DNA of 55,848 bases, filler included, from Sphacelaria rigidula (Eukaryota), in the NCBI GenBank assembly GCA_964200075.2. It is 5 parts of 5 records of this genome, joined end to end, with 100 filler letters (N's around TTAATTAATTAA, not from the genome) between each part and the next. Parts side by side here need not be neighbours in the genome. Positions count along the whole stretch, not along the records: positions 44,760 to 55,848 come from CAXNAA020005409.1; 4 more parts are not named here. The stretch is one strand, 5' to 3'. Under the pieces are notes generated by a model, which saw nothing but the letters and a program-made list of their open reading frames with translations, had not been told where the DNA came from and made no database searches. Shown here one piece after another: positions 50,282-55,689 of this stretch (positions are counted from its first letter, which is position 1; every line of letters begins with the position of its first letter). A program made the translations under genes and the position numbers.

Positions 50282-53039
50282 TCCCTGGTGATTGCGGGGC
50301 TTGCCGAACAGATGGCCACGATCACCTCCCTGTTCCTCGTAGAAAGCGTCAAAACCAGCGCGCCGGAATCCTGTGTATTGCTGAAATGAATCTACGTTGC
50401 CGTGTCAAGGCCGATGGCAGAGGTATTGATACACCCCTTGCGCATGCACCATCTACTTCCGCTTGTTCGACGCTTCACTGTTTGCCTCGCTCATCCCCCG
50501 TCCAATCGTGGGGAGGTACGGCTTTAGCTTCTTCAATGCTGTCTGTGTAGCGGAGCGCCTCACACGTGGACAGATAGCACCCTGTAGGACGTGCTGCACA
50601 GGGTTCTTCACAGTCTTTTGTGGGAACCCTGCATTACATTTGCAAACTATAGTACCTCTACCAGCAATGTTCATAGCGTTTTTGTCGAAACCCTGCAAGC
50701 AAACCTGTGGAGAGGCCCTCCCAATTTTAAAAATTGCACATTTGTTTTTCGAAAATTCCAAATTATTTTGGTACAAGATCAATAATATTTTTCATTTTGA
50801 ATAGCTTCTCCTGCTGTCCGAGATACATCCTCTTTTTGCCGGAATCGAATCGGGCAAGAAGGAAGTTATCTCCCACTTCATGCACCAATTGGGCTAAGGC
50901 ATGAATTCTCAAGAGCTTTTGCTGAATAGAGATCCCACACACTGCTTACGAGTGTATATCCACACGCCTGTGCTTCGAAGCGACGCTTCCGCTGCAGGCG
51001 CGGTATATATGCGGATGTGACGTAATATACCTTGCATATGAATCCACATAGCTTATGAAAACCCGCGGTCCAATGTCTACCAACACGAACCAAAATTAAT
51101 CGCGGTATACATGTGCTCTGATGGGGATGATATATAGATTGATTGATTGATTGACTATGTCGCACTAATTTAACTGACCCCGCGCAGCAGGGGTCCAGCC
51201 GTGGTCTATACTATCACAACAATAAACTGTATAAAACCATGCAGGACAGTACAACTCCGCGTGCTTATACGTCAGGTGCTATATACTGCAGAGTGAGCGC
51301 GGCATATGCGTTACGTATGGCTATGGAATGTGGATATATGCTGCAGCCTATATTTTGATACACGGGGGTGTTCTATGCCGTCAGGAGTAACTACAGAGTT
51401 CACACGCAGCACGCGCACACAAGTGCAGCACGTAGTGAGCGGGGCATGGAAAGGAAGCGGGGAAAGTACAGTACAGACAGCGCAGGACTATATATGTTCT
51501 CTCCCTACACTGCGACATGAAAAGGACTTCAATGACGTGCATCACATCATGATTCGAAGGCAGCAACGCATCCGACCTATATCATGTGGCATGTTAACCC
51601 GCACAGTAAAAAAAACAAAATTAGCTTTGCCGTCGTAAACCAGCGAGCGGCAAATGGCGGAAGTGTCACCTGGTGGTGATGCTGGCGGAGACGAAAGCGC
51701 GGTTGGGAGCGCCGGGGCGTCATTTCCACGCATGCCCACGGTGTGTGAACTCTCAACCGTTTAATAATTTGCCCATTTTGCCCATGCCAAAGCAAATGCA
51801 TTGACAATCACGCGTATGTGCGGGAGTCGCAGAGACACGGCTATTCACGGTATTCGCAACTCTTGATACTGTCGAAGACTGGGGTGATGTTTCACGGACG
51901 ACATGATGAGGGTCACAGTCGACGAGATCGTCCTCTTTACACTAGAGTGTCTGACTCACAAAGCGCGTTGAACGCCAAATAATGATATGATGCTCACCGT
52001 TTTCAGTCTCCCACAAAGGTCTGTACCGATCTCGGGATCCTGCCGCCGCCTGTGATGATGAGCTTGAAGTTATTTTCCATCGACGGCGTGTTATGGGGAA
52101 GGGTGCCTTTGGGATGGTGAGTCCTACTTAGGGTTGCACGTTCACTTCGTGCAATTTCCTGCGTGGAAGTGAACCTGAGCCTACGTTCGGAATTCACTAT
52201 CCAAAAGGATACTTGCGGTGTTGGGCCATCCTCCCCAGTTACAGTCAGAACGCATATTGCAAGTGTAGGGAGGAACGGCGACTGGCGGGGGTGACGAACT
52301 TAAGCATACGCCCATGAGTACCTATATGTATAATACATGCCGTATCAATCAAATACCCCACTGGCTAGATCGACTCGTATGTACCACATGTATATGAGAC
52401 GAATACACCTGGATTAGATCTCTGTGCATGTGCACTCACGGGTGGGCCCTGGCTTTCCTGTAACCTGGACTTCGGACGTTACAGACCTTACACAACGTCT
52501 GTAACGTCCAAAATTCCATGTACCCAAAGTTACAGGCATCCACTTTGTATACCCATACGTAGCGCACATGGCACGCTAACTCTGCAGTATATTGTACCGT
52601 ACGTGTATAAGCACGATGTCGTTTTGCCCTACACGGTATTGTACAGTCCAGTATACAGCACCAAATCGCGTGCGTACGTTGTGATCGTCATACCGCCATC
52701 AAAGTACGGTATATACCGCGGCCAGAAGTTTTCGGTTTCATAATCGAAAAAAAATGCTTTGGTTTTCATTTCGGAGACCATGGACTATGGGTTTTTCAGC
52801 ACTTGTATATATATATATATTAAAGCGAGGTATATCCCCTGTAATCACCATACCCACCAGCCAAACCTGTACAGTGCGGCTATGTGGACATATACTCGCA
52901 ATCAGTGTGTGGATTTGTATAATGTACAACAGTTGAGGCTGTTGACAACACTCTATCTCTTTGCCCAATTGACATGTATCTCCCTCTCCGGGCTGCGCGG
53001 CCCGGGGCGAGTGAGTGAAGTGCGAACCTGCACGCACAC

Positions 53040-55665
53040 ACCCGAAGTACAAAAAAAGGCATCGTCGTCGACAGTAGCAGTAACAACAGCAACAGCAGTA
53101 TTTGAGTAGCAACCGTCTTGCTGCCCTACCTGCTGCTCACGCTCGACGATGATGACGGCACTAAATCCTGATGCAGCGGAATTCTTTCCAACGGCGTATT
53201 CCCGAAAGACAAAATTTTCCGCGGCTACACAGCCCGGGGCAGCGGCACCAAGTAAGCGTCGCCGAAATCGTGGGATACGTAGCAAGGAGAGTAGAGCTGC
53301 TGGGTATCTACACGTGTGTAGTCACAAGAAACGATGCGGCGGTGGAAACGATCGAGGCATGTCGGGACTGCTGCCCCCGAAACCATGTCTGATAACAAGC
53401 ACGCACGGAGCAGTGTCCATTGCGGAACATAAATATATACTTGCATGTAAAGGGACAGAATCGAAGAAAAAACACGCCGCACGAAAAAAGAGACGTAGGA
53501 GACGAGCAGATCGGAGGGCTGCCGATAAGAGGAAAAAGACTGCGAGGGCGAGGGCCAGGATCGGTGAGCTTACTGTCGGCACCTACAATGTTCGTACGCT
53601 CGCTTTTAAAGGTGCGAACGGCATTGGCTACAGTAAGATTGTCCAGAAACCTTGTCAGAGTCTGGGATGTGACATCGTAGGGTTGCAAGAAACCAGGATA
53701 GATAGTCAATCGGTGTTCAGTGCGGCGAGATTTACGGTATTTTGTTCTGGTGACACAAGCGGGGCTAAGGGAAGGGCAGGGCAGGGCAACATGTTGTAGG
53801 GATCGCTATCAAGGACTCAATCCTGGAGGAGATGGGAGGAAAAGGTGCTACAGTCGAGTACCTCAGTGCTCGACTTATGAATGTGAAACTTGAACTACAC
53901 GGTAAATCCAACACAGTATCATTTGTAGTTGGGTATACCCCGACGGCGACCACTCCGCTGCGCGAGGAGAACAAGTTTTGGGATGGCGTATCCGATACCG
54001 TCTCACAAGTACCTGGTAAGGGAAATCTATTCGTCATGATGGATGCCAGCGCCCGCACTGGAAAACGAGGGGAGGAGGGTGGAAAGAATGATAGCAAGGT
54101 ACTTGGCGGATACGGGCGGGACGTACTGAACAATAACGGTGAGAGGCTACTATCCTTCGCAGAGGAACAACGCCTACTGTGCTCAATACGTTCTTCAGAA
54201 GACCCAAGCGGGGCATCTCGTACACTTTCCAAAGCTCCAACGCTGGGAAGGAACACTACCGGCTTGACTACATCCTCACAAGATAAACGGACCGACAACT
54301 CCTACGCAACATTTCCGTCCCCCGCCCACCACCCGGAAAACGCGAGTCTGACCATAACCTCGTATCTGCAAAGGTCCAGCTCCGTGGTCTCTTTGCGCCC
54401 AATCGCAAGATGCGGAAACATGCATCAAGACGCAGAACGGCCGACCTTGAGAGGGTGATGGCTGACCCGACGTTAAGATCATTGACGTTGCAAACGGCTT
54501 TCCCTGTCGACCCCTTGCTTATAAATGCTACCACCCCTGACATGACTGCAGGCCTCACCAAGGTGCTAATATCCGCCGCAGCAGACACCGAGCCCCACGA
54601 GAGAGGCCAACGAAGCTCCCACGGCTGGTGTGCGAGTGCCGAGACCAAGGCAAAGATCCACACTGCACGGATGGCGAGGGGAAAAGCACGGGGGGCATCG
54701 ATGTCAACGCCCACTGACACCAACCTCAAGAAAGACTTGAAGAAGGCCAACAAGGAACTTCGTCGTGTTACAGCGCATGCGGTGGAGAGGTTCTTCGAGA
54801 CCTACGTCAGCCGACTTGAAGCGCGCATCGCGAGAGGTGACCAACGCGATTTCTACAGGCAACCGAATGGAATCGATGTCGAAGGGAGTGAACCATGTAA
54901 CTCACAGCAGCAATATATCCGCGACAACAAGGGTCAACTGCTCAGAGACGAAAAGCTCATCCGCCCGCGTTGGGTACAGTGGTTTCACACCCTCCTCAAC
55001 ACCAAGTCACCCCGCCTCAACCCAGCAATCATCGACCAACTCCAGGCGTGACTTCTCAGCACGTCGCTAGACAAGGTGCCTGCGATAGACGAGACAGCGG
55101 GTGCCATACGATCTATGTCCAACGGAACAGGCGTTGATCCAGATGGACTGCCGGCTGAACTGCTCAAGATACCCCTCGACGACGACGACCCTAGCCGACT
55201 ACAGAGATTCCACGCTATCATTGTTGGCATCTGGGGCGGAGCAGCCGTACCACAAGAATCGAAGAATGCCACCATTATCATGCTCCATAAAAAGGGCGAT
55301 CGGACGGAATGCGGGAACTACGGAGAAATTTCACTCGTGTCACACGCCGGCAAAGTGCTCCTCAAGATAATCGCCCGGCGCCTAAGCACCTACTGCGATG
55401 GCGATGGAATTCTGCCAGAAGAGCAGTGCGGTTTCCGCCCCGGACGCTCAACCGTTGACATGATGTTCACCGTCCAACGATTCCAAGAACTTGGCCGGAG
55501 ACGACAAATCCAGCTCTACATGTGTTTCGTCGACCTAACGAAAGCATATGATTTTATCGACCGCCCATTGCTGTGGAAAGAATTGGAACGCTATGGCGAC
55601 CCACCCATCATGCTCTCGATCATCCCCTAATTCCACGTCGGTACGCAAGCTCAGGTGCGCACGAA
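53040..55665 (+). mobile_element. RTE-like non-LTR retrotransposon (APE endonuclease + RT), disrupted and 3'-truncated
   Basis: APE motifs [32 protein letters not shown] and SDHNLV; RT motifs [32 protein letters not shown] and FVDLTKAYD. Several frameshifts and stops. Confidence 0.93.
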
Positions 55666-55689
55666 CGTCAACAAATGCGCGGTACTCGT

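Follow-up and report, generated by a model that had tools for sequence, protein, structure and literature searches.

Our analysis showed that a LINE in the genome of Sphacelaria rigidula opens its single reading frame with a canonical PAM2 motif, the consensus for docking on poly(A)-binding protein (PABP) at its MLLE domain, and that related motifs stand at the same place in diverged LINE families and at the start of a Gypsy-type LTR element. To judge from the sequence comparisons, the motif is real and apparently selected. We consider it fairly probable that it is a functional PAM2, kept by selection, which docks the nascent protein on the PABP bound to the mRNP that it comes from, so that the RNP forms in cis and the template is protected.

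The window copy of the LINE and its N-terminal motif

The element lies on the plus strand at 52981..55667 of the window, by which we mean the whole stretch of DNA analysed (55,848 nucleotides, filler included). It sits on contig C5409, the end of which is also the end of the window; runs of N near 11092, 22282, 33471 and 44660 separate the window's contigs of about 11 kb. This copy belongs to a family that we call A, and is decayed and 3'-incomplete, its bounds being set by the start and limit of homology with other copies. A DNA search for family A gave at least 44 genome matches, 30 loci of which were analysed. Because homology starts at 52978-52982 in 20 of the 29 other loci, the element is placed from 52981 onwards, with a 5' UTR of 168 nt (52981..53148) and no ORF1, which agrees with the sequence-only reading that no separate ORF1 is visible. 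An ORF1 further upstream was considered and rejected, as the sharp 5' end lies only 168 nt upstream of the ATG. The UTR is free of AUG; among the 24 family A copies with a 5' end, the ATG is kept in 22, and 17 have no upstream ATG, scattered ones occurring in the other 7.

The first open frame (53149..53799, plus strand, 216 aa) begins with tandem start codons, ATG ATG, at 53149-53154 and opens MMTALNPDAAEFFP; it comprises the PAM2 motif, a linker, a basic tract and the start of an APE endonuclease, and ends at a decay stop. The motif, TA-LNPDAAEFFP, occupies 53155..53190, with LNPDAAEFFP at 53161-53190, and residues L5, A9, F12 and P14 of the ORF fit positions 3, 7, 10 and 12 of the PAM2 consensus, XXLXXXAXXFXP (PMC6486636). 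With the Pfam gathering score of 20 bits as cut-off, the PAM2 profile PF07145 gave 21.6 bits (E 1.6e-4) for the first 30 residues and 20.2 bits for the same motif in a genome-wide six-frame scan; within the whole 216-aa frame the score was 17 bits, below the cut-off. When the 143-aa extension was shuffled 200,000 times, the pattern L[NS]xxAxx[FW]xP arose at a frequency of 7e-5, or of 1e-5 if confined to the first 12 residues, and the six frames of the window hold two matches to it, the second one stop-containing. The sequence and the Pfam score thus confirm the earlier claim of a PAM2 at the ORF start. Its possible refutation by a start codon downstream of the motif fails at the sequence level, since the first AUG is upstream of it.

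The region flanking the motif is rich in Ala, Pro and Arg and has no Pfam or Atlas match, nor did the ESM Atlas give a usable match for the N-terminal extension. A second, weakly conserved block was seen by eye at 53314..53379 (VCSHKKRCGGG..RGMSGLLPP); it is common, as KH..R..G..RRG.G.L.P, to families A, B and D and to the database relatives P0002, P0005, P0007 and P0057, and matched no known family. Just 5' of the endonuclease comes an Arg/Lys-rich tract (53464..53559), with invariant Arg columns in the alignments and a counterpart in 4 of 4 families (A, B, C and D), for which we infer a role in RNA binding or nuclear import. As had been read from the sequence, the frame stays open through this tract into the APE domain, which it enters at LTVGTYNVRTL (53569). 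The endonuclease itself (53569..54362) was delimited by tblastn with P0002; it has a frameshift near 53770-53799 and matches Pfam PF03372 weakly (E 0.22), whereas the match is clear in intact relatives. The window copy is dead: a stop at 53797-53799 falls about 75 aa into the endonuclease, the frame changes again near 54180-54360, an additional stop occupies 55049-55051, and homology with four longer copies ends at 55665-55667, inside the reverse transcriptase (RT) region, only the N-terminal half of which is present (55286..55606; Pfam RVT_1, E 5.2e-11). All of these features are on the plus strand.

Full-length copies give the anatomy of the element. Three from family A measure 4340, 4516 and 4379 nt and terminate in (AATC)n. 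In intact relatives a single ORF of about 1200 aa encodes both APE and RT (1236 aa in P0002, 1199 aa in P0207); neither of these two proteins has a Pfam match to RNase H or a Cys/His knuckle, and a CCHC pattern after YADD is absent in 5 of 5 relatives. RTE-clade elements are characterised by a single ORF with APE and RT and by a short tandem repeat at the 3' end, and they lack an ORF1, RNase H and a Cys/His knuckle at the C-terminus. By its anatomy the element appears RTE-like, in agreement with the Ectocarpus RTE entries (PMC12477816): RTE-1_Ec32 and RTE-2_Ec32 likewise have a single EN-RT ORF, a length of 4.0-4.6 kb and a tandem-repeat 3' end, which is (CAA)n as in family C described below. 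One LINE relative, P0012, is named as an Ectocarpus protein. Family A contigs were present in 30 of 30 bins of three runs guessed to be RNA, one contig starting at the 5' end of the element, an observation that we do not count as evidence. Elsewhere in the window, 3'-end fragments of family B lie at 2952-3141 (plus strand) and 51128-51207 (minus strand).

Recurrence and constraint across LINE families

Leaving aside two loci without the region, the core residues are kept in most copies of family A (L in 24/28, N in 26/28, A in 26/28, F in 24/26 and P in 26/26), as expected if the motif belongs to the family and not to one copy. This retention alone means only that the master element carried the motif. 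Codon retention (0.93 in the core, 0.85 in other codons) was rejected as a test of selection, the difference being slight and expected of neutrally decaying copies.

The wider sample came from a search with the APE domain, which gave 150 scored matches; 69 loci (9 + 60), picked from the more diverged rows, were examined and comprise 48 of family B, 11 of family C, 5 of family D, 2 of family A and 3 singletons. A PAM2-like pattern is found upstream of the APE domain in 29 of the 48 family B loci (4 with less than 300 nt upstream), and the family has two tandem motifs 15 residues apart, such as LNPAASEFYP and LNPAAVAFYP in L094, with Pfam PAM2 scores of 21.5-24.2 bits. Both tandem motifs are intact and synonymously diverged in L061, L094, L123 and other loci; the family A stretch EFFPT-EFFPT-AKFAA may be a worn second motif copy. 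Family C has a Trp-type motif, LNAKAPVWTP, in 7 of 11 loci (10 with a looser pattern), a form that gave no Pfam PAM2 match at E<=1; Trp at position 10 characterises the functional PAM2w variant of LARP4 (PMC6486636). The distance from the first Met after an in-frame stop to the motif is 8 residues in family B and 2 in family C. Family D has the motif in none of its 5 loci and no Pfam PAM2 match in the 2 tested, and it amplified nonetheless, which shows that the motif is dispensable for some lineages. Loci recorded under family D are L108, L110, L113, L118, L119, L215 and L221.

At the start of the APE domain the families are identical at 35-44 of 83-89 aligned residues. The five core residues of the motif are identical among A and the family B sequences B1 and B2, yet any two of these three differ in the codons for 3-4 of the five; family C agrees with them at 4 of the 5 residues, 2-4 of which it encodes differently. 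As far as codon comparison allows, this pattern speaks for constraint at the level of the peptide and not of an element in the DNA.

Relatives in other assemblies carry related starts. P0006, P0014, P0132 and P0207-P0210 begin with M(x)xLNPxAPxWTP, the Trp form; P0005 has a non-canonical variant, LNPQVRLFVP, and only a degenerate trace is seen in P0002, which among intact relatives is the one closest to family A. An APE tree of 54 rows with unnamed outgroups (3 rows with half or fewer of the columns filled, 10 cut without a detected APE start) holds the motif-bearing families and the database relatives in one clade of 33 rows (support 100/99), with the branching order at its base not settled. 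The motif occurs in the deep branches A and B+C and as a variant in the P0005 branch, and is missing from D; on this tree, an ancestral origin with losses would be the simpler reading. Of 150 representatives that a profile search gave, 32 had at least 25 aa ahead of a detected APE start, and the motif was present in one of them, the family C relative P0132, which suggests a lineage-restricted trait, albeit as a weak negative since gene callers may clip N-termini. A search of this genome for a family near P0093 found none above 52% identity. None of the refuting conditions that can be judged from sequence overturned the earlier claim: the motif stands in most copies of family A and recurs in diverged families and in other assemblies, family D being without it.

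A Gypsy-type element and the presumed PABP partner

The genome-wide scan with PF07145 (E<=10) gave 89 matches, 85 of them in retroelements: 54 in LINE families, mostly read directly with about 4 assigned by position only, and 31 in another repeat, of Gypsy type, some but not all of them traced to a pol gene. The remaining four PAM2-like peptides are probably in host genes (L235 on contig C66, L237 on C16358, L166 on C9562 and L167 on C5534), and the one in L235 looks eRF3-like by eye. In the Gypsy-type LTR element the first ORF opens MSGNPLNPQAQPFYP (L154:1040-1090, contig C13376; 20.4 bits on 30 aa) and continues into a Q/P-rich tract, with RT, RNase H and integrase downstream in Gypsy order; the ESM Atlas gave only leads below 0.9 for this ORF (CCCH, CCHC and Retrotrans_gag). 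Several copies of the repeat keep the motif and diverge immediately after it. PAM2 starts were also seen in L151, L152, L155 and other loci among L131-L170, and one copy has a Tudor-like Pfam match after the integrase. It is conceivable, and we propose it tentatively, that a PAM2 mimic arose independently at the N-terminus in RTE-like LINEs and in a Gypsy-type LTR element, which belong to unrelated classes of brown-algal retrotransposons, and that in both it captures PABP during translation.

The partner that such a motif would need is present in brown algae. PABPs P0031, P0038 and P0046 have a canonical MLLE domain with KITGMLLE (109.9 bits in P0038), close to solved MLLE structures, and a PABP exon of the host is 85-92% identical to proteins of Ascophyllum, Discosporangium and Scytosiphon, which, like the Ectocarpus LINE relative, indicates a brown-algal host. 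MLLE exons were sought in the host genome by scanning with PF00658, by matching a degenerate DNA pattern and by querying with the MLLE of a relative, and none turned up; because the PABP gene runs off contig C725 before the MLLE, absence cannot be concluded. In the complex prediction the host domain was replaced by the MLLE of P0038, from a brown-algal relative. The window peptide scored 0.37, against 0.01 for the best of 3 controls, on a scale uncalibrated for peptides; runs shared at least 87% of contacts and the partner pLDDT was at least 55. Among solved pairs 51 of 78 attain the mark applied, as do 2 of 108 mismatched ones; at scores of 0.60 or less it is attained by 5 of the 78 solved pairs and by all 4 of the mismatches (of 180) that pass. 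As PAM2 with MLLE is a textbook combination, the pass may reflect what the predictor has learned, and the prediction lends weak support to a likeness to PAM2-MLLE, not to binding.

Possible roles of the motif

The general idea that contact between a nascent LINE protein and PABP brings about cis-preference is already proposed for human L1, via a different element (PMC7617806). There, a direct contact of ORF2p with PABPC1 is predicted, and retrotransposition is disrupted by substitutions at that site; the element concerned, the PIE (ORF2p 272-297), is predicted to bind RRM1 and has been proposed to set cis-preference co-translationally and to protect the tail (PMC7617806). The likeness, one of function, lies in a predicted direct contact between LINE protein and PABPC near the N-terminus. 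The PIE is a linker after the endonuclease with RRM1 as its predicted target, whereas the algal motif, at residues 3-14, precedes the endonuclease, has the MLLE consensus and would bind MLLE; L1 also has an ORF1 and a poly(A) end, and the algal elements have neither. Cellular PAM2 proteins (eRF3, ataxin-2, LARP1 and, with its PAM2w, LARP4) share the consensus and its spacing with the algal motif, which can be tandem as in eRF3 or of Trp type as in LARP4. They are host regulators, whereas here the motif is on the proteins of selfish elements. PAM2 is unmentioned in the main text and five supplements of the Ectocarpus TE survey (PMC12477816), and in the excerpts of the L1 PIE study (PMC7617806), and we found no report of PAM2 in any retrotransposon in the open-access literature.

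From what was observed, namely the motif, its position, its conservation pattern and the MLLE of brown-algal PABP, we infer binding, its co-translational timing and the step that it would help. Emerging from the ribosome ahead of the rest of the APE-RT protein, the motif would dock on the MLLE of PABP on the mRNA under translation and keep the new protein with that mRNP. Next, the element RNA would be engaged by the basic tract and the RT, and its reverse transcription would begin at the tandem repeat of the 3' end. In sum, the RNP would be assembled in cis and the template protected against deadenylation or termination factors that depend on PAM2, so that the tether would do part of the job done for L1 by ORF1p and the PIE.

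The 3' ends bear on how far the analogy with L1 can be taken, and L1-style cis-preference may be just one possible use of the motif. Insertions of families A and B end in (AATC)n, those of C in (CAA)n and those of D in (TA)n, so that poly(A) is not the copied primer site, unlike in L1. Family D, alone without PAM2, is also alone in its (TA)n ends as opposed to the A-rich (AATC)n or (CAA)n, four families being too few for a pattern. The earlier interpretation, in which the protein grabs PABP on its own mRNA tail, is supported in part: a canonical N-terminal PAM2 on a single-ORF LINE with no ORF1 stands, whereas MLLE binding and cis-preference by way of the poly(A) tail would be its conjectural side. 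All that a non-autonomous element of Ectocarpus has in common with autonomous RTEs is the last 12 bp and (CAA)n (PMC12477816), and RTE-clade LINEs are prominent among SINE/LINE pairs with shared 3' ends, which is taken as specific 3'-end recognition (PMC3747384). The tether may therefore be of more use for stability, translation or localisation than for the choice of a template.

These same tails and shared 3' ends favour a reading to which we give a lesser but real chance, that the motif binds MLLE for translational or stability control or for condensate targeting and not for cis-preference: it would compete with eRF3, PAN3 or TOB-type PAM2 proteins, or feed back on its own translation, and the 3'-end sequence would set the template. 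A general mRNP or condensate role of this kind would also suit the PAM2 on a Gag-like protein that has a Q/P-rich tract, and the two overlapping PAM2s of eRF3 (PMC4829321) resemble the two tandem ones of family B. Co-translational capture is nevertheless better suited by the extreme N-terminal position of the motif in every motif-bearing family, and stringent 3'-end recognition is unsupported here too, since in none of 6 cases did a 3'-end hairpin exceed shuffled sequences in stability (z +0.23 to -1.05).

It is unlikely, in our estimation, that the motif is kept for some other partner (RNA binding like that of the LARP4 PAM2w, another MLLE-like domain, N-terminal processing) and resembles PAM2 incidentally or secondarily. 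The LARP4A PAM2w does bind oligo(A) RNA as well (PMC6486636), family C combines the Trp form with (CAA)n tails, and the complex score is weak; yet the conserved positions are exactly those of the PAM2 consensus while the variable ones drift, and in the genome scan the motif and the PAM2-type peptides of the host itself score alike. Most improbable of all is a neutral relic or chance match, for instance one captured with a host 5' region and spread by copying. The motif is short, family copies share one master so that their counts are non-independent, and family D does without it, but such an origin sits badly with a motif kept across families at about 50% endonuclease identity with synonymous changes in its core codons, with a duplication in family B of which both copies are intact, with a PAM2 in an unrelated LTR element and with the low shuffle frequency (7e-5). 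The codon pattern, in particular, leaves this last explanation largely refuted. A selected PAM2 that tethers the nascent protein to its own mRNP is the reading that we prefer.

How a LINE protein selects its own mRNA has long been asked, and the answer is least clear for ORF1-less elements without a copied poly(A) tail. The PABP-tether model lends itself to direct testing, since the motif is 12 residues long, its partner is of a structurally solved class and substitutions that abolish binding are known, and natural variants are available in which it is single (A), double (B), of the Trp type (C) or absent (D). The PAM2 at the start of a Gag-like protein suggests that mimicry of PABP partners may be a recurrent strategy of retroelements, overlooked by domain-based annotation. 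If it is true, the convergent mimic would be a short, portable module that serves cis-preference or packaging in place of part of what ORF1 does, and another solution, reached by convergence, to the problem that is solved in L1 by PIE and RRM1.
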